Positions 202 to 14,510 of a DNA stretch of 16,149 nucleotides are shown one piece after another. A program made the position numbers and the translations under genes. How positions within the stretch are numbered: position 1 is the stretch's first letter; every line of letters starts with the position of its first letter. The DNA is taken from IMG/VR virus record IMGVR_UViG_2541047852_000003; one strand, 5' to 3'. Source of the stretch: a virus (Duplodnaviria; Heunggongvirae; Uroviricota; Caudoviricetes). The notes under the pieces are model-generated. The model had not been told where the DNA came from. It did not search any database and saw only the letters and a program-made list of their open reading frames with translations.

Positions 202-246
202 GAGTGCTATCTCCGAATAGGGAATCGAACCTGCAAATCAGGCAAT

Positions 247-268
247 AAAAAACCGCCATCAGGCGGCT
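247..268 (-). terminator. Intrinsic terminator-like hairpin (CCGCC-ATCA-GGCGG) followed by U-run on minus strand
   Basis: Stem 253-257/262-266 with A6 on plus strand at 247-252 (U-run on minus transcript); overlaps stop of the 55-aa ORF. Confidence 0.45.
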
Positions 269-426
269 TGGTGTTCTTTCAGTTCTTCAATTCGAATATT
301 AGTTACGTCTGCATGTGCTATCTGCGCCCACAGCATCCAGTGGTCATAGCAGTCGTTGATGTTCTCTGCTTCGATAACTCTGTTGAATGGCTCTCCATTC
401 CATTCACCTGTGACTCGGAAGTGCAT
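259..426 (-). CDS. Hypothetical small protein (55 aa), MHFRVTGEWNGEPFNRVIEAENINDCYDHWMLWAQIAHADVTNIRIEELKEHQAA
   Basis: Own translation of reverse strand; ATG 424-426 with GGAG upstream; stop TGA inside the terminator hairpin loop. Not in the ORF track (below 60 aa). Confidence 0.4.
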   Translation of the reverse strand: MHFRVTGEWNGEPFNRVIEAENINDCYDHWMLWAQIAHADVTNIRIEELKEHQAA

Positions 427-498
427 TTATCATCTCCATAAAACAAAACCCGCCGTAGCGAGTTCAGATAAAAGAAATCCCCGCGAGTGCGAGGATTA

Positions 499-783
499 TC
501 ATTCATTGTCGATATTCACCTTTATAGCGAACACCTTTACCGGTTTATCGCCGAAGTGCGGATGTGTGATTGTCTTGATTTCATATCCGTCATACGGGAC
601 GTCAATTCTGCGGCTGGAATCGTCGCGCTTCGGATATCCCTTTGTGATAATCAGGCGGTCATACTCGCGGAACATAATTCGCTTATTCCAGTAGTCATTA
701 CACAGGCGATACTCTTCCGTTTTCTCTCCGCGAATCATGGCATCGAAGTATTCACCTTTAACGGCAAGTTGCAGGTTAGCCAC
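499..783 (-). CDS. Hypothetical phage protein, possibly ASCH/DUF3850-like
   Basis: 94-aa ORF with AGGAGG upstream of ATG; N-terminal pattern LQLAVKGEYFDAMIRGEKTEEYRLCNDYW resembles ASCH-like fold proteins (by eye). Confidence 0.45.
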   Translation of the reverse strand: MANLQLAVKGEYFDAMIRGEKTEEYRLCNDYWNKRIMFREYDRLIITKGYPKRDDSSRRIDVPYDGYEIKTITHPHFGDKPVKVFAIKVNIDNE

Positions 784-1063
784 GACCTTCCTCCTTTGGC
801 TTGTGAATTTGTATCGTCATGCCGCTTTGAGTGGTGACTACAACGACAAAACCAGGCTGAAGACTGTTAAGATTGAATGCTTCGTAAAACGAAGCCAAGG
901 CCAGCGCTTTTTTATTCTTTCGGTTCCACCAACGCCATCCATTGCTACAGGCTACACTGACAATCCACTGTCCACTCCTGTAAGCCATATAAAACCAGAT
1001 GAGCAAAACCTGAATGAATGCTATCCAGTCAATAATCGTATATTTCGCGAAGGAGACCATCAA
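776..1063 (-). CDS. Hypothetical protein with one predicted N-terminal TM helix
   Basis: 95-aa ORF; start overlaps stop of upstream gene (ATGA coupling); hydrophobic stretch IIDWIAFIQVLLIWFYMAY. Confidence 0.4.
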   Translation of the reverse strand: MMVSFAKYTIIDWIAFIQVLLIWFYMAYRSGQWIVSVACSNGWRWWNRKNKKALALASFYEAFNLNSLQPGFVVVVTTQSGMTIQIHKPKEEGRG

Positions 1064-1632
1064 TTAACCTCCTGCGGCGGTTCCGGTAGAGGCATCCAGT
1101 ACAAGGCGTTCCCTAACCACGATAAAGTGCCGTCGCTCAACTCCACGTATTCCCCTTGTACCTGTCCTGCCATATACTCGCCGTGCTTTGAATAAATTAA
1201 AATCCAATCATCTTGAGCGGGCATTCGCTCACTACAGCTTATCCAACCATCCGGAGTTACCGGATAGTTGCCCGACAGCTCGTTCAACTTGTAAGTTTGG
1301 CTTACAGGTTCGGCTTCCAGTTCTGCAATGCGCTTCTCTGCAGCTTCCAGCTCAACGCGCAGCTTCCCTACCGTTAGCGCAATTTCCTCGTTCTCCTGGT
1401 CGCGGCGTTTGATGTATTGCTGGTTTCTTTCCCGTTCATCCAGCAGCGCCAGCACGGTTTCTGGTCCGGTCAGAAATTTGAAGGCGTTGAGCGCATCAAT
1501 ATCCACACCGTAATCCTTAAGTTCCTGTTCACTTAACAAATCATCATCAACTGGCAACATTAACAGGCGTTCCATTGCCGGAATTGCACGTTCTGCCGCC
1601 TCACGCAGTGCCTGATAGTTAATTTTGGTCAT
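1060..1632 (-). CDS. Ead/Ea22-like early protein with DUF551-like C-terminus (WMPLPEPP)
   Basis: 190-aa ORF, coiled-coil-like middle (LRVELEAAEKRIAELEAE), C-terminal PDGW...WMPLPEPP motif typical of lambdoid early-region proteins. Confidence 0.5.
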   Translation of the reverse strand: MTKINYQALREAAERAIPAMERLLMLPVDDDLLSEQELKDYGVDIDALNAFKFLTGPETVLALLDERERNQQYIKRRDQENEEIALTVGKLRVELEAAEKRIAELEAEPVSQTYKLNELSGNYPVTPDGWISCSERMPAQDDWILIYSKHGEYMAGQVQGEYVELSDGTLSWLGNALYWMPLPEPPQEVN

Positions 1633-1633
1633 A

Positions 1634-1933
1634 TCACATCCCCCTGAAGCCGTTGCATTTACGTAAAAAATCGCAGATATAGCCCTTCATTTTTTCGTGC
1701 CAATCTCGATCATTCCCATTGCACCAACCATCAGGTGGAGTCCAGTTTTCTATCAGAGCAGCCATTTTCTTTGCTTTCGCCGGAGTAGCTGTTGCGGTAT
1801 CGCAGTAATGACGAGTGTCAACCAACGTATCCATACCATCGATATCAAGTACGCAAAACCATGTGTGATTCGGCATTTCAACAGATGGTATTTGTTGCCC
1901 ACGTCGACGTTTATCAATAAGACATACAGTCAC
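1634..1933 (-). CDS. Hypothetical early protein (99 aa)
   Basis: GTG start overlapping upstream stop (GTGA) with AAGGAGG 6 nt upstream; tightly packed with neighbours. Confidence 0.4.
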   Translation of the reverse strand: MTVCLIDKRRRGQQIPSVEMPNHTWFCVLDIDGMDTLVDTRHYCDTATATPAKAKKMAALIENWTPPDGWCNGNDRDWHEKMKGYICDFLRKCNGFRGM

Positions 1934-2466
1934 TGGTTGCCTCCTTTGCGAAGCTGGGCAGCAAAGTCAACTAACCACTCAGTCATTTCAACCTTCCCTA
2001 CCAGGTCTGAACCAGGGTGCATACAGCAATCACTCTGCGCCGCTTTGAAATCCTTATACTCATATTCTTGGGCCACCAGATTTTTTGCAGCTTCTATAGC
2101 AGCATCCACCCCCTGCGCCCGCACTTCAGCCAGAAAAGCATCGGTGGCTGGGGTTTCAGTAACATCATCTTCCCATTCGCTAAACTCCTCACGACAAAAG
2201 TCATTAAATTCCTTCTCAGATTGCTTAAGTGAGGTATTTTCAGCAGCCATCTTCGCGCATTTAGCCTCAAGGTTATCAATCGTGATTCCAGCAGAACTAC
2301 ACTCCCGCAACGCCGTTTCCAGTTTTGATTCAAGTTCACCGAACTTACGGACAAGGTATTCAGCGTTTGTTTCGTTAACCTTTAAATCACTTGGGATGCA
2401 TTTACCTTTCAGAAAACCATCCATCTCAATTAGTGACATTTGTTTCATTTCTTCCCACTCCGCCAC
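1930..2466 (-). CDS. Hypothetical acidic coiled-coil early protein (Ea22-like?); alternative ATG start at 2446-2448 with GGAG upstream
   Basis: 178-aa ORF in track; internal ATG (MKQMSLIEM...) has the better SD, so the true start may be 2448. Confidence 0.45.
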   Translation of the reverse strand: MAEWEEMKQMSLIEMDGFLKGKCIPSDLKVNETNAEYLVRKFGELESKLETALRECSSAGITIDNLEAKCAKMAAENTSLKQSEKEFNDFCREEFSEWEDDVTETPATDAFLAEVRAQGVDAAIEAAKNLVAQEYEYKDFKAAQSDCCMHPGSDLVGKVEMTEWLVDFAAQLRKGGNQ

Positions 2467-2542
2467 ATCGCATTCAGATATTTGTTGTCATTAACAGAAC
2501 CGAAACTCTTTCTCTTAAGCAAGTCCTCTCATGGTAAATTCC

Positions 2543-2839
2543 TCAGTCATTACTGATAGCGCCATAGCGTGAGCGGTAATTACGCAGGCGCGGGTCGATA
2601 TATTCAGGGAAGTGGGTATATGTGGCTTTGCGGAATGGTCGGATTGATGTCTGGTAAATTCGCTCGCGTTCTTCTTTCTCTGCAAGCCATATACAGTGGC
2701 GAAATTCCTTTTCCTCTTTCGTTTCCTGCGGTAGAGACATTATTCGATCGTAGTTTTTTCTGAATTTATCCAGCACCTCCGATACGGAATTGCCGGAACA
2801 GCGGCGCGGGTCATCCGCACCATACAAAGGCGCTGGCAT
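2543..2839 (-). CDS. Hypothetical protein (98 aa)
   Basis: ORF with AAGGA upstream of ATG; no recognisable motif. Confidence 0.45.
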   Translation of the reverse strand: MPAPLYGADDPRRCSGNSVSEVLDKFRKNYDRIMSLPQETKEEKEFRHCIWLAEKEERERIYQTSIRPFRKATYTHFPEYIDPRLRNYRSRYGAISND

Positions 2840-2862
2840 AATTAAATCCTTATTTTTCTAAA

Positions 2863-3246
2863 TCAGAATGGGATGGAATCGTCGTATTCAGGATTATTTT
2901 GATGATTGCTACTTTGCTGCTGTTGGCTGTTTCCTGAAGTTGCAAATCCAATCTTTGCATTCAGTAATTCAAGAGTGATTGATTGACCATTTTGCCCCTG
3001 ATAAACATCAACCCTGATGTTTTCTCCGGTAATTTCTACAATGCCTCCTTCAACCAGAACGCTACGATAGTAATCCGCTTGCGCTCCCGGCTTGGCAAAT
3101 ACAACGGCGCTGTAGTTTGTCCATTCTTTCTTTTTTGTCTGGCGATCGTAATACTGAACGCCAGCACGGATGTTGAATCCGATATTTTCCCCGCCCTGAA
3201 ACTCTCTTGCGGGTTTGTTTAGTCTTACTGTAATCGAATGTGCCAT
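2863..3246 (-). CDS. ssb: Single-stranded DNA-binding protein (SSB)
   Basis: Start at internal ATG 3244-3246 (TAATG overlap with erf stop, AAGGGG SD); OB-fold-like N-terminus and acidic C-terminal tail ending DDSIPF, characteristic of SSB. Confidence 0.8.
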   Translation of the reverse strand: MAHSITVRLNKPAREFQGGENIGFNIRAGVQYYDRQTKKKEWTNYSAVVFAKPGAQADYYRSVLVEGGIVEITGENIRVDVYQGQNGQSITLELLNAKIGFATSGNSQQQQSSNHQNNPEYDDSIPF

Positions 3247-3851
3247 TAAGCAGTTGCCCCTTCTAATTCGTCTCGTCTGATGTTGTAAACGTCCTGCGCT
3301 TTGTGCTGCTCCGGCGTCCCTTCGAGCATCTTCCACGCTTTGGCGAACGCCTGTTTAAGCTCTTCTACGGTGTTTTTCTGCATTGCTGCGTCAGTGAATG
3401 CTTTTAGAACCTGTTCAGGTGTAAGTGATGGTTTTGATTGCTTTGCTGCTGCGTTCTGCTGATGTTTATGCTCGTCTGTATCTGCATCTTTCGCATCATC
3501 AATGCCGAACAAACCATTGAGGCAATACTTGCGTGCATAAGAGCTTGTAGCTCCCGTAACTTGTGCAGAATCCATTCCTTTCTTGCTTTCTTCCTCTCGT
3601 GCAAGAGCGGTTGCCGTATGACTGTTTTCGCCATCGGTAATAGTTGCCGTGGCTTTCACGTAATACCGATCACCAATCAACACAACTTCATCGCTGATTG
3701 ATAAAAACAGACCGTTCAGTAACGGCTTAACGCCTTCAAGAATATCTTCGCAGCTTCTGTATTTATATTTGCCGAATGAGTTGTACTGATTCTTTGGCGC
3801 GTTCAGATTCTCCTGAATAGCTGCCAGTCTTGCGTAAAATTCTTTGCTCAT
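3246..3851 (-). CDS. erf: ERF-family single-strand annealing recombinase
   Basis: 201 aa from ATG 3849-3851; N-terminus MSKEFYARLAAIQENLNAPKNQYNSFGKYKYRSCEDILEGVKPLL matches the ERF pattern; followed by SSB as in many lambdoid recombination modules. Confidence 0.65.
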   Translation of the reverse strand: MSKEFYARLAAIQENLNAPKNQYNSFGKYKYRSCEDILEGVKPLLNGLFLSISDEVVLIGDRYYVKATATITDGENSHTATALAREEESKKGMDSAQVTGATSSYARKYCLNGLFGIDDAKDADTDEHKHQQNAAAKQSKPSLTPEQVLKAFTDAAMQKNTVEELKQAFAKAWKMLEGTPEQHKAQDVYNIRRDELEGATA

Positions 3852-3952
3852 ATGATTGCTCTCAGAATGGACACGGCCCAAGGAAATAACGCTGATTTAA
3901 TACTTCGACTCGGGACAAATTAAGGCATACCCGCATTCCTTCGCGGTCACCA

Positions 3953-4111
3953 TTATGGCGATACCAGAGAGCTTTCTGCGTGTACATGCGTCTCTGTAAC
4001 TTGCTCTCCTTCACTGTGGTTGCAAGTGACATGAATATCTCCTTCGTTACCGATTAATTCTTTTATCTGACGAATGAATTCTTCGTCTGACCAGTTATCC
4101 GTAAAACTCAT
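3953..4111 (-). CDS. Small protein in kil position (52 aa), start overlapping cIII stop (ATGA)
   Basis: Positional analogy to lambda kil immediately downstream of cIII; no sequence-level recognition. Confidence 0.3.
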   Translation of the reverse strand: MSFTDNWSDEEFIRQIKELIGNEGDIHVTCNHSEGEQVTETHVHAESSLVSP

Positions 4112-4278
4112 GGACGGCCTTGTTGTTTCAAAATATCCCAAAGCTTTTCGAGCAAGCTTTTCATTCTTGGTTGTTTAAAGTCTGCTCCGGTTAAAATGTT
4201 TTTTCGTGAATGCTGTACCGATAAAATCGGGTTGAAAGGGCGAACCGATGCCGCCCCTGCAATAGCGAACTGTTGCAT
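4108..4278 (-). CDS. cIII: cIII-like protein (FtsH/HflB inhibitor)
   Basis: Start at internal ATG 4276-4278 with AAGGAG SD; MQQFAIAG N-terminus and KSLLEKLWDILKQQGRP resemble lambda CIII (MQYAIAG...ESLLERI...LIDILNQPGVP). Confidence 0.6.
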   Translation of the reverse strand: MQQFAIAGAASVRPFNPILSVQHSRKNILTGADFKQPRMKSLLEKLWDILKQQGRP

Positions 4279-4344
4279 AGGATGCTCCTTCTGTTTGATT
4301 GCATAACGAAAACGCCTCGAGTGAAGCGTTATTGGTATGCATAT

Positions 4345-4368
4345 AAAAAAGCCCTCACACTGGAGGGC
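4345..4368 (-). terminator. Intrinsic terminator (tL1-like): GCCCTC-loop-GAGGGC followed by U6 on minus transcript
   Basis: Hairpin 4351-4368 with A6 on plus strand 4345-4350; lies between the 156-aa gene and cIII. Confidence 0.55.
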
Positions 4369-4472
4369 AAAGAAGATTTCCAATAATCAGAACAAGTCGG
4401 CTCCTGTTTAGTTACGAGCGACATTGCTCCGTGTATTCACTCGTTGGAATGAATACACAGTGCTTATTCGTA

Positions 4473-4943
4473 CTAATAAAACACCCAGTTTTCTGTTTCT
4501 TGGTTGTGTCCAAAGTTATATTCAATACCTGGTGTTGATGTATCAATATTCTTCATCCCATCAACAAGAGTTGATACAACAGCCAAATCTTGTTTGATTC
4601 TCATCAAATGGTATTTCTTCCGGCGCAATAAACTTTCAATGGCAAGTTTCTTCGTCGGGAATGCAAAAGATCTTTCTGCATTTTTTGCTACTTTCTTAAT
4701 TGCATATCTATTTCTCCTTTGTTTCCATTCCTGTAACCACTGATTTGGTGCTGGTTTAAAATTAACAATCCAATGCGCAGGAACCAACCATGCATAATGC
4801 TCTGTCTGATGAAAAGCTATATATTGAAGTGCGAATATTTTGATTCCATCTTCTTCAACTGTCGCTTGGAATCTCCAGAAAACAGGCATTCCATCATGTT
4901 CAGTTTCTGATTCAGGAAAAGGTACGCTCCATGATTTTGTCAT
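4473..4943 (-). CDS. Hypothetical accessory protein (156 aa) directly downstream of N
   Basis: ORF with GAGGTG SD; occupies the ral/sieB position of lambda; no recognisable family. Confidence 0.5.
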   Translation of the reverse strand: MTKSWSVPFPESETEHDGMPVFWRFQATVEEDGIKIFALQYIAFHQTEHYAWLVPAHWIVNFKPAPNQWLQEWKQRRNRYAIKKVAKNAERSFAFPTKKLAIESLLRRKKYHLMRIKQDLAVVSTLVDGMKNIDTSTPGIEYNFGHNQETENWVFY

Positions 4944-4951
4944 ATATCACC

Positions 4952-5251
4952 TCAAATAAGTGGTTTGCTGCCTAATTTCATTTTCTGGCGACCAACACAA
5001 GTCACACCCATTTCACTGCGTGGCTTGCGGTAGTAAATACGATTCTGTTTACTCTCGACTTCATCTGCCTTCTTGCAGCGAAGGATTCCGAGTGATGCTG
5101 CTTTATCCGCTCTGACGCAACCAGAGAGCTTTAGCGCAATTTTTCGCGCCAGTCGCTGTTCTTGCATCGCCTGTTCACGTTGAGCCTGTCTGCGTGCTCT
5201 GCGGCGATTTCTGGCGTTATCGTCAGCCAGATATGTAATGACTACTGTCAT
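4952..5251 (-). CDS. N: N-like transcription antitermination protein
   Basis: Start at internal ATG 5249-5251 (GGAGG SD); arginine-rich motif DNARNRRRARRQAQREQ; C-terminus RIYYRKPRSEMGVTCVGRQKMKLGSKPLI matches lambda N C-terminus (RTWYSKPGERGITCSGRQKIKGKSIPLI). Confidence 0.8.
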   Translation of the reverse strand: MTVVITYLADDNARNRRRARRQAQREQAMQEQRLARKIALKLSGCVRADKAASLGILRCKKADEVESKQNRIYYRKPRSEMGVTCVGRQKMKLGSKPLI

Positions 5252-5563
5252 GTTGACCTCCGATGAAACAACTTTGGAATTGATAGTGATTGCAAAGTGG
5301 TTTCTGGCCCCTCGAACTGAGGGGCAGAAAGAGCATCTCGCCACCTAATAGGTCGATGCTCGGATCGAGAGATTTAATTAACCTCGGTTTTGAAGTTATG
5401 CATTCACATAAATCCTCCTACCTCTTGTGCAGCTTTCTTGAATATGGTGGCGGCTGCATAACGCCTATGGAATTGACTTTGGCGGTGACGCGCCGGGTGC
5501 TTATCTTCCGGTTGCCGTCGTGCAGCTGCACTTCACGTCACCCCAAAGCCAACTACTCTTTGG

Positions 5564-5605
5564 TTCCCGCATTTCGGCGGGACAATCCCATCAATGTTAA
5601 AGAGC
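5564..5605 (-). promoter_or_regulatory. nutL site: boxA (GCTCTTTAACA) and boxB hairpin (TCCCGC-CGAAAT-GCGGGA) on minus strand
   Basis: Reverse complement of 5595-5605 gives GCTCTTTAACA; 5564-5582 gives a boxB-like stem-loop identical in loop to the nutR copy at 6721-6740. Confidence 0.65.
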
Positions 5606-5651
5606 CTGCCAATCTGTTCCGTTTGGCTTCCAGCGTCCTGCTGATGGCTTA

Positions 5652-5730
5652 AATTTAAGATCTCTTTAATTAATGGTCAAGAGCATTTTTGAAGAAAACT
5701 TAAATTTTCTTTCGTAACTTAAGTTTGGCT
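5652..5730 (-). promoter_or_regulatory. pL promoter (-35 TTGACC at 5675-5680, -10 TAAATT at 5652-5657, minus strand) with overlapping TTAAG-type OL operator repeats
   Basis: 17-bp spacing; ATTTAAG-N4-CTTTAA-like operator overlapping -10; further TTAAG repeats at 5697-5729. Confidence 0.5.
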
Positions 5731-5743
5731 TTGATTTTTAAAG

Positions 5744-5772
5744 GAAATAAAAAAAAAGGGGCGAATGCCCCC
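5744..5772 (-). terminator. Intrinsic terminator immediately after c2 stop (GGGGC-GAAT-GCCCC followed by long U-run on minus transcript)
   Basis: Hairpin 5758-5771; A-run 5744-5757 on plus strand. Confidence 0.6.
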
Positions 5773-6423
5773 TTATGGAAGGTTTGCTAGTTTTGCATCG
5801 ACAACTACGCCGATGATTTTGCAGTTTCCGTTGATCTCGATCATCGGATATTGTGGGTTAAGTGGTTTTAGAAACTTCCTGCCTGCATCAATAACTAACT
5901 TCTTGAAAGTTGCCTCGTTTTCTCCTTCGAGCTTTGCAACTACCAGTTTCCCGTTACGCGGCTCTACTTCAGGATCGACGAGTATTATCATTCCTTCAGG
6001 GATACTGAGACCGGCCGGAGCCGTCATTGAGTCTCCCTTCACGTCCAACCAAAACGAATCTTCTGAACAGTCTACGGTTGTATCGTACCAGTTATCTATT
6101 GCACGCTTATGATATGGTTCTACAGCTTCCATCCAGCATCCTGCGCTCACCCAGCTAATCAGAGGGTATGACCCTCTTGGATCATGCCTACTGTGATAGG
6201 CAATGTTTGAAAGACTTTCCTCTCCTTTCATCAGATAGTCAGGGGAACACTTCAACGCATTAGCCAGGGCGAGAAGATTCTCTCCATTTGGCTCTGTCTC
6301 AGAGCGTTCCCACTGAGATATGGCAACATTAGACACGCCGACCATCTTTCCAAGTGCGGCCTGCCTGATCTTGAGTTCTTTTCTCCGAGCGCGAATGCGC
6401 TCTCCCATCAATTGAGTTTTCAT
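5773..6423 (-). CDS. c2: Prophage repressor, P22 c2-type (N-terminal HTH, C-terminal LexA/S24-like autocleavage domain)
   Basis: 216 aa; QAALGKMVGVSNVAISQWE HTH; C-terminal S24-like domain; near-identical to my recollection of P22 C2 (MNTQLMGERIRARRKKLKIRQAALGKMVG...). Confidence 0.85.
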   Translation of the reverse strand: MKTQLMGERIRARRKELKIRQAALGKMVGVSNVAISQWERSETEPNGENLLALANALKCSPDYLMKGEESLSNIAYHSRHDPRGSYPLISWVSAGCWMEAVEPYHKRAIDNWYDTTVDCSEDSFWLDVKGDSMTAPAGLSIPEGMIILVDPEVEPRNGKLVVAKLEGENEATFKKLVIDAGRKFLKPLNPQYPMIEINGNCKIIGVVVDAKLANLP

Positions 6424-6503
6424 AGTTAAGACATCTTAAATAAACTTGACTTAAGATTCCTTTAGTGGATAATTTAAGTGTTCTTTAATTTCGGAGCGAG
6501 TCT
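6424..6503. promoter_or_regulatory. OR region: three TTAAG-N4-CTT(T)AA operator-like imperfect palindromes (6426-6439, 6451-6465, 6473-6488), pR (-35 TTGACT 6446-6451, -10 GATAAT 6468-6473), divergent pRM presumed
   Basis: Operators and promoter hexamers read directly; arrangement matches P22/lambda-type OR. Confidence 0.65.
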
Positions 6504-6689
6504 ATGTACAAGAAAGATGTTATCGACCACTTCGGAACCCAGCGTGCTGTAGCTAAAGCGTTAGGCATTAGCGACGCAGCAGTCTCTCAGTGGAAGGAAG
6601 TCATCCCAGAGAAAGACGCCTATCGACTGGAAGTCGTTACAGCTGGCGCCCTGATGTATCAAGAAAGCGCTTACCGCAAAGCGGCATAA
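6504..6689 (+). CDS. cro: Cro repressor, P22-type
   Basis: 61 aa, HTH QRAVAKALGISDAAVSQW; GGAG SD; first gene of pR operon divergent from c2. Confidence 0.8.
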   Translation: MYKKDVIDHFGTQRAVAKALGISDAAVSQWKEVIPEKDAYRLEVVTAGALMYQESAYRKAA

Positions 6690-6695
6690 GCAAAT

Positions 6696-6740
6696 TGCTC
6701 TTTAACAGTCATGGTCCTCATTCCCGCCGAAATGCGGGAA
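6696..6740 (+). promoter_or_regulatory. nutR site: boxA (TGCTCTTTAACA 6696-6707) and boxB hairpin (TTCCCGC-CGAAAT-GCGGGAA 6721-6740)
   Basis: Read directly; same boxB as nutL; followed by hairpin GCGCAT-AAGTTG-ATGCGC at 6747-6764 (possible tR1-region structure). Confidence 0.65.
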
Positions 6741-6782
6741 TACAACGCGCATAAGTTGATGCGCATAACTTCTTATTTGTTA

Positions 6783-6820
6783 AGGAAATACTTACATATG
6801 GTTCGTGCAAACAAACGCAA
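6783..6820 (-). promoter_or_regulatory. pRE (cII-activated promoter) with TTGC-N6-TTGC CII-binding repeats (minus strand, 6807-6820)
   Basis: Reverse complement of 6807-6820 is TTGCGTTTGTTTGC; flanking sequence CATATGTAAGTATTTCC matches the lambda pRE region as I recall it. Confidence 0.6.
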
Positions 6821-7091
6821 CGAGGCTCTAAGAATCGAGAGTGCGTTGCTTAACAAAATCGCAATGCTTGGAACTGAGAAGACAGCGGAAGCTGTGGGCG
6901 TTGATAAGTCGCAGATCAGCAGGTGGAAGAGGGACTGGATTCCAAAGTTCTCAATGCTGCTTGCTGTTCTTGAATGGGGTGTTGTCGACGACGACATGGC
7001 TCGATTGGCACGACAAGTTGCTTCGATTCTCACCAATAAAAAACGCCCGGCGGCAACCGAGCGTTCTGATCAAATACAAATGGAATTTTAA
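6798..7091 (+). CDS. cII: Transcriptional activator CII (lambda-type)
   Basis: 97 aa starting MVRANKRNEALRIESALLNKIAMLGTEKTAEAVGVDKSQISRWKRDW..., essentially lambda CII; true ATG at 6798, not the upstream in-frame ATG of the track ORF. Confidence 0.9.
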   Translation: MVRANKRNEALRIESALLNKIAMLGTEKTAEAVGVDKSQISRWKRDWIPKFSMLLAVLEWGVVDDDMARLARQVASILTNKKRPAATERSDQIQMEF

Positions 7092-7102
7092 CAACATCCA
7101 AC
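7038..7102 (-). ncRNA. oop: OOP-like antisense RNA to cII 3' end (terminator 7038-7063; putative pO -10 TATAAT at 7109-7114)
   Basis: Minus-strand hairpin CGCUCGG-UUGCCG-CCGGGCG plus U6, same as lambda oop terminator; a perfect TATAAT on minus strand upstream; -35 is weak (TGGATT). Confidence 0.4.
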
Positions 7103-7113
7103 GAGGTAATTAT

Positions 7114-7386
7114 ATGCGAAACAAAGGCTTTAATCCACCTGATACACACAAAGAAGCTAAGCGTTTGCGCTTCCTTCGTTCCATTGATGAAAGAACTCAA
7201 ATCTCTTTTGTGAAAGTTGCCAGAACTGAGCTTCTGAAGGCTGAGGCGAGGGCGTTGCTCCCGTCTCTACCAAAAGAGGAGGGATATACGTTCATTCCAA
7301 ACGCATTTCTGGAAAAGCTTCTCAAAGAAGACATATCCGTAAGTCAGTTTAACGATGTTCTTAAGGTCTTTCGTCAAGGCAGGTAG
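7114..7386 (+). CDS. Hypothetical protein (90 aa) between cII and the replication initiator
   Basis: ATG 7114 with ACGAGGT SD; basic, helical-looking; no recognisable family. The track ORF extends upstream into cII and is rejected. Confidence 0.5.
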   Translation: MRNKGFNPPDTHKEAKRLRFLRSIDERTQISFVKVARTELLKAEARALLPSLPKEEGYTFIPNAFLEKLLKEDISVSQFNDVLKVFRQGR

Positions 7387-7388
7387 TT

Positions 7389-8336
7389 ATGAGCAATACA
7401 GCAAAAATCTACGATTTCAGCGCCGCACACGAGCGCAGGAGCAACAGGATGGAGAACCAGAAAACTGGTTACATTCCGTTGTACCGGAGCATTCTGAAAC
7501 AGTCATGGGCGAAAGATGTTTATCTTCGCACCCTGTGGGAAAACCTTCTCCTGAATGCCGCCAGAAAGCCATACAAAGCGAATTTCAAAGGTCATGAATG
7601 GCATCTGCAACCCGGTCAACTGGTTGTGACAGCAGCTGATTTAGGTCTTCAGTTATGCGACAGACATGGCAAGCCAGCAAGCCGTGATCAGGTTGAGCGG
7701 ATGCTTCAGGTTTTTGTGAAAGAGGGGATGATCTCCATTGATGGAGAGAAGCAAAAAGGCCGTGTGATAACCATCACAAATTACCATGAATATGCTCAAA
7801 AAATGGACAATTTACCCGCACATGAAGCCGCACAAACAACCGCACATGATGCCGCACATGATGAAGCCAGCAATAGCGCGGCTTTCAGCGTACATGCCGC
7901 ACATGAAAGCGCACATGAAGCCGCACAAACAACCGCACATCATGAACAAGAAGGTATTAACAAGAATATAAATAATACCCCCCTACCCCCCAATGGGGGA
8001 GGCGATGGGCAGGTTAAACCTGAACGTCGCAAGGCAGAACGAATCGACTACGAATCCTTCCTGAACGCCTACAACACCGAAGTCGGTGACAGACTGCCAC
8101 ACGCTGTTGCGGTCAACGAGAAACGAAAACGCCGCCTGAAGAAAATCATCCCGCAACTGAAAACGCCAAACGTGGACGGTTTCAGAGCGTATGTCAGGGC
8201 GTTTGTGCATCAGGCCAAGCCGTTTTACTTCGGAGACAACGACACGGGCTGGACGGCTGATTTTGATTACCTGCTGAGAGAAGACTCGTTAACGGGAGTT
8301 CGGGAAGGGAAGTTTGCAGACAGGGGGATTGCATGA
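7389..8336 (+). CDS. Replication initiator, lambda O / P22 gp18-like, with internal origin
   Basis: 315 aa; N-terminus [10 protein letters not shown] resembles lambda O (MTNTAKILNF); iterons and AT-rich tract lie inside the gene; followed by helicase gene with ATGA overlap. Confidence 0.7.
7815..7979. repeat. Origin of replication: about six direct iterons of the form CCGCACATGA(A/T)G plus two CCGCACAAACAACCG copies, followed by a 30-bp AT-rich tract (7950-7979)
   Basis: Repeats read directly at 7817-7945; AT-rich AAGGTATTAACAAGAATATAAATAATA follows; classic lambdoid ori architecture within the initiator gene. Confidence 0.7.
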
Positions 8337-9709
8337 GACAGGATATCGAAGCGAGCGTTATCGGTGGCCTGCTGATTGGTGGATTAACTCCAACCGCCAG
8401 TGACGTTCTTGCAACGCTGGAGCCGGAAGCGTTTTCAATTCCGCTCTACCGGAAAGCCTTCGAGGTTATCCGGAAGCAGGCGAGAAACAGAAACCTAATC
8501 GACGCGCTGATGGTTGCCGAGGCGTGCGGAGAGGAGCATTTCACGTCAATCCTGATGACCAGCAAAAACTGCCCGAGCGCCGCAAACCTGAAGGGATATG
8601 CCGGAATGGTCGCGGATAACTATCACCGCCGTCTGGTGCTGGAAATCATGGATGAAATGCGTGAACCAATCCAAAGCGGAACCATCGACGCATCGAGTCA
8701 GGCGATGGATGAACTTGTAAAACGTCTCTCAGCCATCAGAAAGCCCCGTGACGAGGTTAAACCTGTACGGTTAGGGGAAATCATCACCGACTACACTGAC
8801 ACGCTTGACAGGCGTCTGAGGAACGGAGAAGAGTCCGATACCCTGAAGACCGGAATCGAAGAACTTGATGCCATCACCGGAGGGATGAACGCGGAAGACC
8901 TGGTGATAATCGCTGCTCGTCCTGGTATGGGGAAAACCGAACTGGCGCTGAAGATTGCCGAAGGCGTTGCAAGCCGCGTTATTCCTGGTTCTGACGTCCG
9001 GCGCGGGGTATTGATTTTCTCAATGGAAATGAGCGCATTGCAGATTGCAGAGCGAAGCATTGCCAACGCCGGGAGGATGTCGGTTAGCGTACTGCGAAAT
9101 CCTGCATCGATGGATGACGAGGGCTGGGCACGTGTTGCTAACGGCATGAGTCAGCTTGCAGATTTGGATGTATGGGTAGTCGATGCCTCGCGATTATCGG
9201 TCGAAGAAATACGCTCAATCGCAGAACGGCACAAACAGGAAAATCCAAACCTCTCACTCATCATGGCGGATTATCTTGGCCTGATTGAGAAGCCGAAAGC
9301 AGACCGCAACGACCTCGCAATTGCTCACATCTCCGGAAGCCTGAAGGCGATGGCGAAAGACCTGAAAACACCGGTTATTTCCCTGAGTCAGCTTTCACGC
9401 GATGTTGAGAAGCGACCAAACAAACGCCCGACAAACGCAGATTTGCGTGATTCAGGAAGCATTGAACAGGACGCAGACTCAATCATCATGCTCTATCGGG
9501 AAGCGGTATATGACGAGAACAGTAGCGCCGCGCCATTTGCTGAAATCATCGTGACGAAAAACCGTTTTGGCTCACTTGGTACGGTTTACCAGCGGTTCTG
9601 CAACGGACACTTTGTTGCATGTGACCAGGATGAAGCCAGACAGATTTGCACAGCATCAAATGCACCTGCTGCGCGTGGCAGACGATATGCACAAGGGGCT
9701 GACGTATGA
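8333..9709 (+). CDS. Replicative DNA helicase, DnaB family (P22 gp12-like)
   Basis: 458 aa; Walker [16 protein letters not shown], Walker B-like [21 protein letters not shown] arginine-finger region. Confidence 0.85.
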
Positions 9710-9789
9710 CCATCTACATCACTGAGCTTGTAACAGGCCTGCTGGTAATCGCAGGCCTTTTTATTTGGGGGAGGGTAAATCGTGGTTGA
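9706..9789 (+). CDS. Possible 27-aa hydrophobic peptide ([27 protein letters not shown])
   Basis: ATG overlaps helicase stop (ATGA); single hydrophobic helix; too short to call firmly. Confidence 0.2.
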
Positions 9790-9988
9790 GTTGATTTTTT
9801 CTGCATTGAGGATTCTCGGTGCTATGTGGATGGTGGCGACGTTCATTGTGGTTGCCAGCAGTTTTGTCCGGTTGGTAGGCGAAGGTAAAGACCTGGTTGG
9901 TGTGCTTTTCGGTAGCATTTTTCTGTGGGTGATTATCGGTGTTATGCCTGTTGTCGTAGCAAAAGTGGCGTGGCGTTTTGTGAGTTAA
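9782..9988 (+). CDS. Small membrane protein (68 aa, two predicted TM helices)
   Basis: GTG start preceded by GGGGAGGG SD; strongly hydrophobic sequence. Confidence 0.45.
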   Translation: MVELIFSALRILGAMWMVATFIVVASSFVRLVGEGKDLVGVLFGSIFLWVIIGVMPVVVAKVAWRFVS

Positions 9989-10000
9989 TCGGAGGTTAAT

Positions 10001-10183
10001 GTGAGCAAGTGCCAAAAGTGCAATAACACAGGAATGTGTGATAGCGGAGGTTCTACTCCTTGGGGAGAGCCGATTTTTATTGAATGTGACTGCCTTATGA
10101 AAGATGACGAAAGCAGATGCCAGTTTGAAGAGAGTTGGTTACGACGTGGGGGGCGAATCTTCAGACCTTATCCGTTACCCTGA
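10001..10183 (+). CDS. Cysteine-rich small protein (CxxC...CxC, zinc-ribbon-like); probably 5' part of a frameshifted gene
   Basis: GTG start with GGAGG SD; MSKCQKCNNTGMCDSGG...ECDC motif; frame changes at the G6 tract 10148-10153. Confidence 0.4.
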   Translation: MSKCQKCNNTGMCDSGGSTPWGEPIFIECDCLMKDDESRCQFEESWLRRGGRIFRPYPLP

Positions 10184-10418
10184 AAATCACCATGAAATTG
10201 GCAGTGGTGATATTGGTGGTCAATACGTGATGGACGATGTTCAAGGCCACTGGCAAACGTGGCAGGCATCGAGAGCAGCTATTGAAATTGAGCTGCAAAA
10301 GCCAAAGAAAGGCCCACTTCCCGGTGATTATCACATTGGCTATGACTCAGGTGCAGAATCGCAATACGAAAGCGATGTAGAGGCTATCCGCGCCGCTGGA
10401 ATCAAAGTGAAGGAGTGA
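10104..10418 (+). CDS. Hypothetical protein; probably 3' part of the same gene as 10001-10183 (frames meet at G6 tract)
   Basis: Overlaps previous ORF by 80 nt in another frame; no convincing independent start before internal ATG 10230. Confidence 0.3.
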   Translation: MTKADASLKRVGYDVGGESSDLIRYPENHHEIGSGDIGGQYVMDDVQGHWQTWQASRAAIEIELQKPKKGPLPGDYHIGYDSGAESQYESDVEAIRAAGIKVKE

Positions 10419-10606
10419 GCATGAGTCGACGAAGTAGCTTTTTGGGGTTTGTAATATTCCTGTCCTGCACTGGTTACATCGTAATCTGGTCAATTTCGAA
10501 CATTGACCGTGGCGGGAAATATCTCATTGTAATGTTCTTTCCTTTGTTTCTTGGGTGGTACGCCGCAAGGTTGCTGGAAGAATGGGGTTACAGGCATAAA
10601 AAATAA
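10415..10606 (+). CDS. Small membrane protein (63 aa)
   Basis: ATG overlaps upstream stop (ATGA); two hydrophobic segments; ends 7 bp before IS629. Confidence 0.45.
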   Translation: MSMSRRSSFLGFVIFLSCTGYIVIWSISNIDRGGKYLIVMFFPLFLGWYAARLLEEWGYRHKK

Positions 10607-10667
10607 AGGAGTATGAACCGCCCCGGGAATCCTGGAGACTAAACTCCCTGAGAAAGAGGTAAACAGG

Positions 10668-10994
10668 ATGACTAAAAATACTCGTTTTTCCCCCGAAGTC
10701 CGTCAGAGGGCGATTCGTATGGTTCTGGAAAGTCAGGGCGAATATGACTCACAGTGGGCGGCAATTTGTTCCATTGCCCCAAAGATTGGCTGTACACCGG
10801 AGACTCTGCGTGTCTGGGTACGCCAGCATGAGCGGGATACCGGAGGCGGTGATGGCGGGCTCACCACCGCTGAACGTCAGCGTCTGAAAGAGCTGGAACG
10901 TGAAAATCGTGAACTGCGCCGCAGTAACGATATCCTTCGCCAGGCTTCCGCTTATTTTGCGAAGGCGGAGTTCGACCGCCTCTGGAAAAAATGA
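10668..10994 (+). CDS. IS629 transposase OrfA (HTH/leucine-zipper part)
   Basis: 108 aa [21 protein letters not shown]...; A6 run at 10986-10991 is the likely -1 slippery site for OrfAB fusion. Confidence 0.85.
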
Positions 10995-11881
10995 TGCCAC
11001 TGCTGGATAAGCTGCGTGAGCAGTACGGGGTCGGACCGCTATGCAGCGAACTGCATATTGCCCCGTCAACGTATTACCACTGTCAGCAACAGCGACATCA
11101 TCCGGATAAACGCAGTGCCCGTGCGCAGCGCGATGACTGGCTGAAGAAAGAGATACAGCGCGTATACGATGAAAATCACAAGGTATACGGTGTGCGTAAA
11201 GTCTGGCGTCAGTTGTTACGGGAAGGTATCAGAGTGGCCAGATGCACTGTGGCACGTCTCATGGCGGTTATGGGACTTGCCGGTGTTCTCCGTGGTAAAA
11301 AGGTCCGTACGACCATCAGCCGGAAAGCCGTTGTCGCAGGCGACCGCGTAAACCGTCAGTTCGTGGCAGAACGTCCTGACCAGTTGTGGGTGGCTGATTC
11401 TACTTACGTCAGCACATGGCAGGGGGTCGTCTATGTGGCGTTCATCATTGATGTGTTTGCCGGATACATCGTGGGGTGGCGGGTCTCATCGTCTATGGAA
11501 ACGACATTTGTGCTGGATGCTCTGGAGCAGGCGTTATGGGCCCGTCGACCGTCCGGCACAGTCCATCACAGTGATAAAGGTTCTCAGTATGTATCGCTGG
11601 CCTACACACAGCGGCTTAAGGAAGCCGGATTACTGGCATCAACAGGAAGTACAGGCGACTCGTATGACAACGCGATGGCGGAGAGCATCAATGGCCTTTA
11701 CAAAGCGGAGGTAATACACCGTAAGAGCTGGAAAAACCGTGCAGAAGTGGAACTGGCCACACTCACGTGGGTGGACTGGTATAACAATCGACGATTGCTG
11801 GAAAGGCTGGGCCATACTCCTCCGGCAGAAGCAGAAAAAGCTTATTATGCTTCCATCGGAAACGATGATCTGGCAGCCTGA
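10991..11881 (+). CDS. IS629 transposase OrfB (DDE catalytic domain)
   Basis: 296 aa with rve-type DDE region (WVADSTYV...HHSDKGSQY...[15 protein letters not shown]). Confidence 0.85.
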
Positions 11882-12050
11882 GTTCACAGATAAAACACTC
11901 TCCAGGAAACCCGGGGCGGTTCAGACCTGCACTCTTCCTTTGCCCTGCTACCGATAGCATCCTTTAACGACTGCGGCATCCTTACCAAAATCTTACTTAT
12001 TTCTTTCTCCATGTTACCCTCCACGCAAACAACTCTTTTCGAATACAAAA

Positions 12051-12104
12051 GATAGCAAAGTGAGTATATCTAGTCAAAATTTTTTTGCATACACTTTGCT
12101 ATCA
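12051..12104. promoter_or_regulatory. 12-bp inverted repeat GATAGCAAAGTG / CACTTTGCTATC flanking a 30-bp AT-rich spacer upstream of the RHH gene; candidate operator/promoter
   Basis: Arms at 12051-12062 and 12093-12104 are exact reverse complements; spacer holds TATATC and TTGCAT hexamers. Confidence 0.4.
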
Positions 12105-12126
12105 AATTGAATACCAAAGGTGTTAT

Positions 12127-12375
12127 ATGGCAAAGGGTGTGTCAATTTCTCCAACTACGGTAAGAATCCCTGAATCTTTACGCGAGGCTCTTGCTGTCAG
12201 AGCATCAAAAAATGGTCGCTCTGTTAACTCCGAGATCGTCATGATTTTGCAAGCCGCGATTGATGAAGATAGGTCGCCAAAGTCAGTTGAGTCATTTGCT
12301 CAGCAAGAAGCTGATAAATTCAAAGAGGCGCTACTTGAGACGCTAAAGACCATGTATGCTAAGGATGAAAAATAA
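12127..12375 (+). CDS. Arc/MetJ-type ribbon-helix-helix DNA-binding protein
   Basis: 82 aa from ATG 12127 (AAGGTG SD); RIPESLREALAVRASKNGRSVNSEIVMILQAAI matches the Arc-family RHH pattern. Confidence 0.6.
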   Translation: MAKGVSISPTTVRIPESLREALAVRASKNGRSVNSEIVMILQAAIDEDRSPKSVESFAQQEADKFKEALLETLKTMYAKDEK

Positions 12376-12911
12376 TGCTGCACACAATTCATTTCTTATG
12401 CCCTGTTAACACTGCCACTGTTGGGCAACTTCAGAACCACTGTCTCACCGCATTATCTCAAGGCGCAACTGAATTAAATATCCATATATCAAGTCAGGGA
12501 GGGGAAACTGCTGCTGGCTTTACTGCGTATAACTTTCTTAAGTCACTCCCTGTTACCGTTAGAACTCACAACATAAGCAATGTTGAATCCATAGCTAATA
12601 TCGTTTTCCTGGCTGGCTCAGAACGTTTCGCAAACCCATTATCAAGATTCCTGTTACATCCTCTATTATGGTGCTTTGCCTCCCCAGCCGCCGACCATGC
12701 CAGATTGAGAGAGTACGGGAAATGCCTCGATAACGATCTTGATCGCTTCGTTGAGACGTTCAATATCGACATCGGAACCCATATTAGGTGGGCATCCCTG
12801 ATAGCAGACTCGACCATTTTGGATGCTAACAAGGCTCTTGAGCATGGCATAATTAATTCCATAAAAACTGCAAGGCTGGCATCCAATCAGGCAAACTGGT
12901 GGGTTGTTTGA
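12375..12911 (+). CDS. Minimal ClpP-fold (S14-like) serine peptidase
   Basis: 178 aa; by-eye alignment to E. coli ClpP core: NIHISSQGGETAAGF vs YLYINSPGGVITAGM; Ser in ESIANIVFLAG aligns with catalytic Ser of GQAASMGAFLLTAG; His in RFLLHPL aligns with RVMIHQPL; start overlaps RHH stop (TAATG). Confidence 0.6.
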   Translation: MLHTIHFLCPVNTATVGQLQNHCLTALSQGATELNIHISSQGGETAAGFTAYNFLKSLPVTVRTHNISNVESIANIVFLAGSERFANPLSRFLLHPLLWCFASPAADHARLREYGKCLDNDLDRFVETFNIDIGTHIRWASLIADSTILDANKALEHGIINSIKTARLASNQANWWVV

Positions 12912-12936
12912 TGGGTAAATCATGATTACTCCTTAT

Positions 12937-12961
12937 AAAAAACCCACCTGACGGTGGGTTT
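12937..12961. terminator. Bidirectional intrinsic terminator between convergent operons (CCCACC-TGAC-GGTGGG with A6 upstream and T-rich downstream)
   Basis: Hairpin 12943-12958; U6 on minus transcript, UUU on plus transcript. Confidence 0.55.
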
Positions 12962-13409
12962 AGTCAAACATAGTGTTTCTAAAGTCTCTCGCATACCCTG
13001 CTAACACTCTCATTCTATTATGATTGTTAGCAGACATGTGAGCTACAGGATGAAAAAGAGCAATCAATGAATACCTGTTCTCATCAAAAAGATTTTGTGC
13101 ATAAACGAGAGCGGTATTGGATGTTTTATGCCACTGCAACTTTTGCGGTGTGCTGATATCTGTGCCATTTTTTATTGGCTCAAATTTATTTTCACCAATT
13201 GCTAAATGAAGGTGCATAAGGCCTGCATCTTCAATATCAGGAGGTCGATGATAAGAGGTGTCTCTGCCAAAATAGCTGGGCAACGTTCCCGTAGACTTGT
13301 AGATGATAAAATCATCTACAAGTGTTTGTTTTAAATCAGGAAACTCAACAAAAACCGGGGAGAAAAAATAGTCAAAACTATCCTGATTATATTCCACGGT
13401 TACTTGCAT
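12960..13409 (-). CDS. Putative YafO-like toxin (ribosome-dependent mRNA interferase family), tentative
   Basis: 149 aa; motifs FIIYKSTGTLPSYFGRDTSY, MHLHL, TALVYAQNLFDE, LIALFHP recalled as YafO-family features; assignment from memory only. Confidence 0.4.
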   Translation of the reverse strand: MQVTVEYNQDSFDYFFSPVFVEFPDLKQTLVDDFIIYKSTGTLPSYFGRDTSYHRPPDIEDAGLMHLHLAIGENKFEPIKNGTDISTPQKLQWHKTSNTALVYAQNLFDENRYSLIALFHPVAHMSANNHNRMRVLAGYARDFRNTMFD

Positions 13410-13417
13410 GTTTTACC

Positions 13418-13984
13418 TCAGTGGAAGTTACCAGAGTGAAACACACGAGTCCCGTGCTCAGCAAGCGCACGCAAACCAGCCATATCTACGGAACTATCAA
13501 AAACAACCGGAACACATGAGCGTTGTTTAATAAGACTATTCAGGTTGGTTACGGCAGATCTGGCATCAGCAACAACGATATAGATATCTCTTGCGATCTC
13601 TTTAAAATCAGCAGAAGCTTCTTTGAATACCGATTTCATTGCCCCTTCAAGTCCTCTCAATTGATGCTCTATCAATCGAGACTTTTCTGGTTCAATGATA
13701 GACAACACATTGTCTACATTCTCATCGGTAGCGTTTGCAAGAACACGATAAGCGTATTTCAGCATTCGAGACAATTCTTTAATCGAAGACACCGCCTCAT
13801 GAAGCTCATCATTAGCCCGTTCACTGCTGAATGAGGATTGATGGTAAGCGTGCTGAACGTTATCAGTAACAACCACCTCACAACTGAACGCAGAAGCTTG
13901 CTGTAATAGCAAACCTATTGCGACTCCAGCTTTGGCAGCGTTCAAGCTAAACATTTCATCAATCCCATTAGTCTCATTGCTCAT
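13418..13984 (-). CDS. Hypothetical protein (188 aa) upstream of and co-transcribed with the YafO-like gene; possible atypical antitoxin/partner
   Basis: Start at ATG 13982-13984 with AAGGAGG SD (internal to the track ORF); stop 8 nt before the downstream start; no recognisable domain. Confidence 0.5.
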   Translation of the reverse strand: MSNETNGIDEMFSLNAAKAGVAIGLLLQQASAFSCEVVVTDNVQHAYHQSSFSSERANDELHEAVSSIKELSRMLKYAYRVLANATDENVDNVLSIIEPEKSRLIEHQLRGLEGAMKSVFKEASADFKEIARDIYIVVADARSAVTNLNSLIKQRSCVPVVFDSSVDMAGLRALAEHGTRVFHSGNFH

Positions 13985-14159
13985 ACAAACCTCCTTCTTA
14001 TCGGAGATTATCAATAGCTATGCATCCATTGAATACACGCTATGCGCAATAAGTTTACGTCACGTGATATCATTATGCAACCACCGTTCTATCACCGACT
14101 AACTTTACTCCCACTCCTATACATCATCTGGTATCCTGCGCAAAACTAAGGAGGTTGGT

Positions 14160-14510
14160 GTGAATGCTCAGTCTGTCATCATGGTTTTCCTTGGGCTGAT
14201 TGTCGCAAAACTATATCCAGACTGGTGGAAAGGGGCATTAGCTACTGTCGCCATCTATTTGCTTTTATCCATCGTTAAGCGATCACTCGCTGAGACCGTA
14301 AATCAAGCAAAACGTTTCTCATTTAAGAGTTTAATAAACTATGTTACTGGGCTTATTTTTTGCCTTTCAATTCTGATCGCTTCGGCTTTTTTGCCCGTAT
14401 CAATAGCTAATTTTTTTGGCGCACCATATGAGGTAGGTTATCTATTCTCTGTTTCCTGTCTTGCCATTGCTCTTCTTTACCTGTGGACGAGATCAAAGAA
14501 TAAAAATTAG
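14160..14510 (+). CDS. Integral membrane protein (116 aa, 3-4 predicted TM helices)
   Basis: GTG start 5 nt after AAGGAGG; hydrophobic segments VIMVFLGLIVAKL, ATVAIYLLLSIV, GLIFCLSILIASAFLPV, YLFSVSCLAIALLYLW. Confidence 0.5.
   Translation: MNAQSVIMVFLGLIVAKLYPDWWKGALATVAIYLLLSIVKRSLAETVNQAKRFSFKSLINYVTGLIFCLSILIASAFLPVSIANFFGAPYEVGYLFSVSCLAIALLYLWTRSKNKN

Follow-up and report, generated by a model that had tools for sequence, protein, structure and literature searches.

A prophage-borne YafO-family toxin gene linked to a helical partner of a small protein family: a putative type II-like toxin-antitoxin module

YafO is among the least understood toxins of the RelE superfamily, and its dependence on the ribosome is still debated (PMC11980606). 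In toxin-antitoxin (TA) loci of the PF_YafO type the antitoxin gene precedes the toxin gene and only a short gap separates the two (PMC11980606). In Escherichia coli K-12, yafO, which encodes a ribosome-associated mRNA interferase, is part of the dinB-yafN-yafO-yafP operon, and its antitoxin YafN is a 97-residue protein of the Phd/YefM type. In a survey of E. coli, the partners of 6 YafO_toxin clusters fell into 13 clusters, of which only 8% were known (PMC10790755). Here, we describe a two-gene cassette of a P22-like E. coli prophage, carried by a 16,149-nucleotide stretch of Caudoviricetes DNA (IMG/VR record IMGVR_UViG_2541047852_000003, hereafter called the window). The downstream gene of the cassette encodes a YafO-family protein of 149 residues, and the upstream gene a protein of 188 residues, called below the partner, which we regard as a putative antitoxin. 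The two genes had been noticed in a reading of the bare letters of the window (the sequence-only reading), which proposed that they form a non-canonical toxin-antitoxin or toxin-immunity pair, possibly serving phage exclusion.

Like K-12 yafNO, the cassette has the order antitoxin then toxin with a short gap, and the two toxins are homologous, belong to the same Pfam family and have their invariant residues in common. Unlike YafN, the partner in the cassette is all-helical, is unrelated to the Phd/YefM type and has no detected DNA-binding domain; unlike the dinB-yafN-yafO-yafP operon, the cassette is a phage moron with what appears to be its own promoter. More generally, two small co-directional genes with the antitoxin first, a short gap or overlap, and conservation of the pair are features that the cassette shares with type II TA systems. 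The association of a toxin family of presumed BECR fold with a non-homologous antitoxin is also reminiscent of the combinatorial networks of RelE/ParE-superfamily TA systems (PMC11980606, PMC10790755); the cassette differs from these networks in that its partner appears exclusive to one YafO subfamily (68 of 69 genes, see below) and has a signal-like N-terminus. Neither the partner family nor its exclusive link with a phage YafO subfamily was found described in the literature searched. Judged by sequence comparison, the toxin is a new member of a known family, and the novelty would lie in its pairing with a helical partner, within a TA architecture that is familiar.

A YafO-family toxin and its linked partner

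Both open reading frames (ORFs) were found where the sequence-only reading had placed them, on the minus strand (Table 1), and identical products of 188 and 149 residues are annotated by RefSeq in E. coli S88. The 149-residue protein matches the Pfam profile PF13957 (YafO_toxin) with a score of 78.9 bits (E = 3.4e-22, cut-off 25) over profile positions 3-101 of 101, and its identity to E. coli K-12 YafO is 38% over 120 residues (E = 7e-20). This profile search confirmed the family assignment made by the sequence-only reading, which had recognized the motifs GRD...Y, HLHL and LVY...DE. These motifs are real: when the toxin, K-12 YafO and 17 homologues were aligned, F47-G-R-D-T-x-Y53, H66-L-H68-L and L101-V-Y103...D109-E110 were found to occupy invariant or nearly invariant columns. 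The toxin and K-12 YafO have 20 invariant columns in common, which include K38, D50, Y53, H66, Y103, E110 and H124.

With the NCBIfam equivalog model of YafO (NF007377) the toxin scored 79 bits, below the cut-off of 153. Compared with K-12 YafO, it differs in its N-terminal ~28 residues and has an insertion at residues 77-90; among phage families it is a member of phrog_1651. By these sequence criteria it is a member of the YafO family that is not an ortholog of K-12 YafO, and it belongs to a distinct phage-borne subfamily. A sequence search of the PDB found no YafO-family structure. The structural model of the toxin is of low confidence (predicted local distance difference test, pLDDT, 52); in a fold search, RelE-superfamily toxins ranked top. 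From its homology to K-12 YafO, the toxin is presumed to be an mRNA endoribonuclease of the RelE/BECR superfamily.

Two minor observations concern toxin genes. The toxin ORF of the window contains a perfect 13-bp inverted repeat with a 3-nt loop, which encodes the conserved residues LVDDFIIYKS and would form an RNA hairpin of -17.7 kcal/mol (z -4.6); this palindrome was rejected as a conserved element, as it is confined to the near-identical E. coli allele. In one related viral contig (L047), a second, very weak match to the YafO profile (33 bits, 136 residues, positions 4145-4555) lies about 700 nt 3' of the cassette.

Searches of Pfam, NCBIfam, PADLOC and the PDB gave no significant match to the partner, and no helix-turn-helix (HTH), ribbon-helix-helix (RHH), AbrB or Phd/YefM domain was detected in it at E values up to 1 in Pfam and NCBIfam. 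The sequence-only reading had likewise seen no Phd/YefM, RHH or HTH signature in this protein and had remarked on its unusual length, which is indeed about twice that of YafN. A relationship to YafN was rejected, as the BLASTP E value between the two proteins is 36 and hhalign gave the partner family a probability of 0.3%. The best PADLOC match, to the coiled-coil tail of ZorA, is weak (E = 0.004, 14 bits) and is regarded as spurious. The partner belongs to phrog_8416, whose function label is "unknown", and its family is small: 6 clusters (90% identity) among 5.8 billion proteins and 23 representatives (50% identity) among 1.84 billion. The members are about 165-190 residues long, save a few short, probably partial entries.

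The AlphaFold2 (AF2) model of the partner is all-alpha (pLDDT 73), with helices at residues 16-38 and, at the C-terminus, 168-183. The bundle that forms the middle of the protein (Table 1) is well predicted, and fold searches returned generic helical bundles only. Remote homology searches and structure prediction, which the sequence-only reading had suggested, led to a small uncharacterised family and to no known enzyme. Conservation is highest in the C-terminal third of the protein, the conserved residues being A141-R142-S143...Q154...F162-D-S-S-x-D-M...L171...L174-A-x-H-G...H188.

The linkage of the two genes was examined from both sides. Starting from the toxin, a partner-family ORF was present directly upstream in all 82 related loci for which upstream DNA is available, corresponding to 49 distinct partner-toxin pairs; the only YafO gene in the set that has no such partner is K-12 yafO. 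Starting from the partner, 68 of 69 genes have an intact YafO-like ORF directly downstream, and in the exceptional case the locus is cut by a contig end. Adjacency is kept even where toxin identity falls to 34% and partner identity to 19%. In the 49 distinct pairs the gap between the two genes ranges from -4 to 18 nt and is mostly exactly 8 nt, some pairs having ATGA overlaps. The pairwise identities of partners and toxins are correlated (Pearson 0.90), and the partner evolves faster than the toxin (mean identity 34% versus 52%), as an antitoxin is expected to do. Adjacency in every informative related locus, together with co-divergence, strongly supports the idea of a non-canonical toxin-partner pair.

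A broken toxin gene was observed in one IMG/VR contig (L026), where the toxin carries a +1 frameshift and the changes F34K (TTT>AAA in the palindrome loop) and Y113H, which affect two invariant residues, and where the partner is 100% intact. Decay in this direction is as expected of a toxic gene; only this one case was seen, and its frameshift falls within a homopolymer run.

Operon layout and expression signals

The two genes form a compact operon with a GC content of 40-42%, a low value that was counted as a sign of foreign origin. The longest ORF of the partner has 198 codons and begins at a TTG at 14014; the ATG of the 188-residue form is preceded by AAGGAGG at a 5-nt spacing, the strong Shine-Dalgarno (SD) sequence reported by the sequence-only reading. 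The 8-nt intergenic gap and the intrinsic terminator of that reading were both recovered (Table 1). The GAGG sequence 5' of the toxin ATG overlaps the TGA stop codon of the partner, an arrangement that allows translational coupling of the two genes.

The TTGC...17 nt...TAnACT pattern of the candidate sigma-70 promoter is conserved in five diverged P22-like prophages, which suggests that the cassette has a promoter of its own. The SD sequence of the partner is predicted to be sequestered by an anti-SD sequence in a hairpin that is present in both the minimum free energy and the centroid fold. The CTCC and GGAG of this hairpin are invariant in five P22-like prophages, and the same anti-SD/SD helix was found in 13 loci of the sister clade described below. 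At the other end of the operon, the terminator shares its first two bases with the end of the toxin stop codon; it is flanked by convergent genes and probably acts both ways. Equivalent hairpins with a U-run were also found 3' of the toxin genes of most related loci, which lie in other genomic surroundings. A consensus promoter/terminator scan flagged neither the promoter nor the terminator of the cassette, the latter apparently because its stem absorbs part of the T-run; both calls rest on folding and on conservation across related loci.

In the sister clade, in which partners have 190 residues (loci L002, L004, L011, L012, L028, L029, L031, which is phage HK639, L035-L039 and L041), a conserved promoter (TTGCTC...TGGTATTAA) is located about 135 nt 5' of the partner ATG. 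The leader of about 85 nt contains three hairpins: an ACAAC/GTTGT stem, a terminator-like hairpin with a U-run, and the anti-SD/SD helix. In the alignment of these leaders 93.6% of the cells are paired, compared with 41-48% when the pairing partners were slid, and the observed covariation, which includes compensatory changes, was reached by none of 500 shuffles. This leader might be an attenuator or a translational switch for the TA operon. An RNA antitoxin of type I or type III kind is unlikely, as the cassette has no Rfam matches and no tandem repeats.

Typical type II operons are autoregulated by a repressor-antitoxin. The cassette has instead a conserved promoter and an anti-SD hairpin; since searches of the partner revealed no DNA-binding domain, expression seems to depend on the sigma-70 promoter, the anti-SD/SD hairpin and the terminator. 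A constitutive promoter and RNA structure would thus set the level of expression in place of a repressor-antitoxin, and control of the TA operon would be shifted to the leader RNA. The conserved promoter and ribosome-binding site hairpin had escaped the sequence-only reading, as had the signal-like N-terminus of the partner and the prophage context, to which we now turn.

Table 1. Coordinates of the cassette, of its signals, of partner segments and of neighbouring features (window positions, except for partner segments, which are given in residues)
Feature	Position	Strand	Size	Details
Two-gene operon	12936-14080	-		Within a P22-like E. coli prophage
YafO-family toxin gene	12960-13409	-	149 aa	Pfam YafO_toxin match and homology to K-12 YafO
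Partner gene (putative antitoxin)	13418-13984	-	188 aa	From ATG
Inter-gene spacer	13410-13417	-	8 nt	Toxin SD (GAGG) overlaps partner TGA stop
Candidate sigma-70 promoter	14052-14080	-		-35 TTGCAT (14080-14075), 17-nt spacer, -10 TAAACT (14057-14052)
Predicted anti-SD/SD hairpin	13990-14009	-	7 bp	AATCTCC (14009-14003) pairs with AAGGAGG (13996-13990)
Intrinsic terminator	12936-12961	-	9 bp	GC-rich hairpin and U-run; -14.9 kcal/mol, z -3.0 versus shuffles
Inverted repeat in toxin ORF	13295-13323		13 bp	3-nt loop
Partner, N-terminal segment	residues ~11-33			Hydrophobic, signal-like
Partner, linker	residues 36-53			Variable, low-confidence
Partner, central segment	residues 54-156			Helical bundle
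Partner, C-terminal segment	residues 161-188			Highly conserved helix and tail
Arc/Mnt-like RHH gene and ClpP-like gene	12085-12911	+	96-aa ORF (RefSeq 82 aa); 178 aa	ATGA overlap between the two
Small hydrophobic protein gene	14160-14510	+		Probably membrane protein; divergent from cassette, beside gene 16
IS3-family insertion sequence	~10615-11923			HTH_Tnp_1 and rve ORFs
ALIL frameshift pseudoknot (Rfam)	10949-11065			Within IS3-family element

Prophage context and possible function of the pair

A 1.25-kb region of the window is 100% identical to a segment of the P22-like prophage that has its integration site beside tRNA-Arg/intS in E. coli S88, APEC O1, ATCC 11775 and other strains, and the allele is held by 55 of 5426 complete E. 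coli genomes (at least 80% query coverage). In S88, tailspike, ant and arc are followed by a divergent operon of a Mnt-like RHH gene and a ClpP-like gene, then by the convergent YafO-like gene and its partner, a divergent gene for a small, probable membrane protein, and ejection gene 16. The cassette sits in the gene 16-mnt interval, and its direction of transcription is opposite to that of neighbouring gene 16. Published work on P22-like prophages places sieA between genes 16 and 9, shows it as prophage-expressed in a diagram, and finds it in only a third of P22-like phages (PMC10883804).

The same cassette was found at the same site in Salmonella P22-like prophages, next to mnt alone with no ClpP-like gene. 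In the cultured phage HK639 the cassette is gp17/gp18, between the tape-measure and minor-tail genes, a place which we take to be equivalent to that of gp15 in HK97. In other loci it is found between Q and holin genes, between head and tail genes, in the tail modules of Proteus myoviruses and beside ogr/old-like genes. The cassette therefore moves as a unit between accessory (moron) sites of temperate phages. Its genomic position matches that of P22 sieA and of other prophage morons; the sequences of the cassette, by contrast, are not related to exclusion genes of the P22 sieA or HK97 gp15 type, and none of the three proteins of the interval has the SieA motif FxRYPxEAxxFNK. In a distant clade, whose partners start with MNPFNAITF... 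and which comprises many IMG/VR loci (e.g. L048-L083), the boundary of the predicted prophage contig coincides exactly with one of the two cassette genes in dozens of cases, so that the cassette often lies at the edge of a predicted prophage.

The explanation that we favour, with a confidence only slightly better than even, is that the cassette is a self-contained phage-borne type II-like TA module with a new antitoxin family. In this model, a YafO-family endoribonuclease of the RelE/BECR fold would arrest translation by cutting mRNA, and the helical partner of about 180-190 residues, in place of the Phd/YefM-type YafN, would neutralise the toxin, most likely by direct binding. The C-terminal third of the partner, its most conserved part, is suspected to make this contact. 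Given the position of the cassette in the gene 16-mnt interval, where P22 has sieA, its most likely role would be abortive infection or exclusion expressed in the lysogen, or else prophage addiction. The exclusion role raised by the sequence-only reading thus plausibly fits the context, that is, accessory sites of prophages and the position of sieA in P22.

Several observations weigh against this model. The partner matches no known antitoxin family and has no similarity to YafN, and toxin and partner match no defence model of PADLOC-DB 2.0. The predicted structure of the toxin has a low confidence, and the correlation of partner and toxin identities arises in part from shared ancestry, so that it is not independent evidence for physical interaction. 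Finally, all of the 14 diverse partner N-termini inspected show the n-h-c pattern of a Sec signal peptide with a cleavage-like site, for example between MNPFNAITFAALCGPLAQPAAMA and QEF, or between MARTKIPFSKVAMLSLALSVSTSCAQLAAA and TP; an exported partner would be unable to hold a cytoplasmic RNase in a stable complex.

The signal-like N-termini are the basis of the main rival explanation, in which the partner is a genuine Sec-targeted protein, exported or inserted into the membrane, and the pair does not work as a classical TA by sequestration. The rule by which the 14 N-termini were recognized is crude (a short n-region, 9-16 uncharged hydrophobic residues and a small-x-small site, often with a proline 5-7 residues before it); when applied to the 44 proteins of the S88 locus it retained five true envelope proteins, the partner and only two probable false positives. 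The N-terminal sequences diverge strongly between clades and the physico-chemical pattern is retained, as is the case for signal peptides, and in distant clades the signal-like N-termini look textbook. In addition, the hydrophobic moment of the segment is low, its length does not suffice for a transmembrane helix, and a variable linker predicted with low confidence comes after it. Other features of the partner do not fit export. In the E. coli/Salmonella clade of 188-residue partners, which includes that of the window, the SD-supported start adds an acidic extension of 10 residues, whose net charge is between -1 and -4 in all but one of six sequences and which should disfavour Sec targeting; the h-region is only 9 residues long, is conserved (GLLLQQ; GLLxQQ), runs into QQ, and is modelled by AF2 as a helix with a pLDDT of 73-81. 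Tight coupling of the two genes, with the 8-nt gap or ATGA overlaps, and the conservation of the partner C-terminus argue for a stoichiometric complex with a cytoplasmic toxin, and no precedent for an exported antitoxin was found in the literature searched. On balance we consider this rival clearly less likely than the TA model, and still the main alternative to it.

Sec targeting could take two forms. The partner could have an envelope function of its own and be merely co-expressed with the toxin. Alternatively, it could neutralise the toxin only as a cytoplasmic precursor and be removed by export instead of proteolysis, so that it would be an "export-labile" antitoxin; the RNase would then be freed by the shut-off of host synthesis or by a secretion disturbed by phage. 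The signal-like segment could in addition impose a dependence on host SecB or another chaperone. In toxin-antitoxin-chaperone (TAC) systems, a hydrophobic extension of the antitoxin imposes dependence on a SecB-like chaperone. TAC modules, which are mentioned in PMC11980606, resemble the cassette in that HigBA-SecB and CmdTAC combine a RelE-superfamily toxin with an antitoxin that has a short hydrophobic extension. Unlike in TAC systems, the hydrophobic segment of the partner is N-terminal and signal-like and is not a C-terminal chaperone-addiction region, and the cassette neither contains nor adjoins a chaperone gene in any of the contexts examined; dependence of the partner on host SecB is pure conjecture. 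We give a low probability to the proposal that the partner is a Sec/chaperone client whose cytoplasmic lifetime is set by the host secretion or chaperone machinery and not by Lon/Clp proteolysis. If it were true, the cassette would be a two-gene, host-chaperone-dependent analogue of TAC systems with the first export-labile antitoxin, and infection by a phage that stops host synthesis or disturbs export would release its RNase.

The position of the cassette inside late operons of HK639 and of several prophages, in the orientation of late genes, could also mean that the pair serves the phage lytic programme, a regulated RNase degrading host or phage mRNA with the partner as a timing or regulatory subunit; the terminator-like hairpin of the sister-clade leader could then tie expression to antitermination. 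We find this improbable, because most related phages do not have the cassette, the allele is present in only the 55 complete E. coli genomes mentioned above, and a protein search of a phage collection matched the partner in just three cultured-phage records, two of which are HK639 and the third a weak partial match. Moreover, the cassette has a promoter and a terminator of its own and a lower GC content, and in P22-like prophages it is opposite to gene 16 in the gene 16-gene 9 interval, the place of the prophage-expressed sieA of P22. Rarity, own signals, low GC content and this position designate it as an accessory moron and not as a core lytic function. Even less probable, to the point of being very hard to defend, is the absence of any functional relation, the toxin gene being a decayed or inactive YafO relic beside an unrelated hypothetical gene: one broken-toxin allele does exist (L026), but the 49 distinct pairs show strict linkage in both directions, nearly every locus keeps its two ORFs intact, and the spacing and the YafO-invariant residues are conserved.

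If the TA model holds, this locus would define a phage-borne YafO subfamily with a putative antidote from a new protein family, and the gene 16-gene 9 interval of P22-like phages would gain a candidate for prophage-encoded defence or exclusion. Because the pair is present in cultured HK639 and in well-studied K1 strains such as S88, APEC O1 and ATCC 11775, it offers a tractable case of YafO-type neutralisation. About two dozen clusters of "hypothetical proteins" would also become nameable.

Neighbouring genes in the window

The Arc/Mnt-like RHH gene and the ClpP-like gene form an overlapping pair that converges on the terminator of the YafO cassette. The ClpP-like product is a putative serine protease (Pfam CLP_protease, E = 2e-11; phrog label "head maturation protease"). 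Because Salmonella prophages have mnt alone, the ClpP-like gene looks like a separate accessory gene on the mnt transcript. It was rejected as a third component of the cassette, as the Mnt-like/ClpP-like operon is absent from all other cassette contexts.

On the other side of the cassette, the small hydrophobic protein, whose gene has the place beside gene 16 that is typical of sieA-type genes, has no family match; the GTG at 14160, preceded by a strong AAGGAGG SD sequence, seems preferable as start codon to the ATG at 14181 chosen by RefSeq. Different small genes occupy this place in other P22-like prophages, and one of them has a Pfam match to Rap1a (type VI secretion system immunity).

The IS3-family element connects the immunity I region directly with the early region of the prophage, which occupies positions 1-10614 with a DnaB-like helicase gene and replication genes. 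By comparison with the coordinates of S88, the right end of the element maps inside the position of arc, and this junction indicates that the prophage copy in the window is rearranged.

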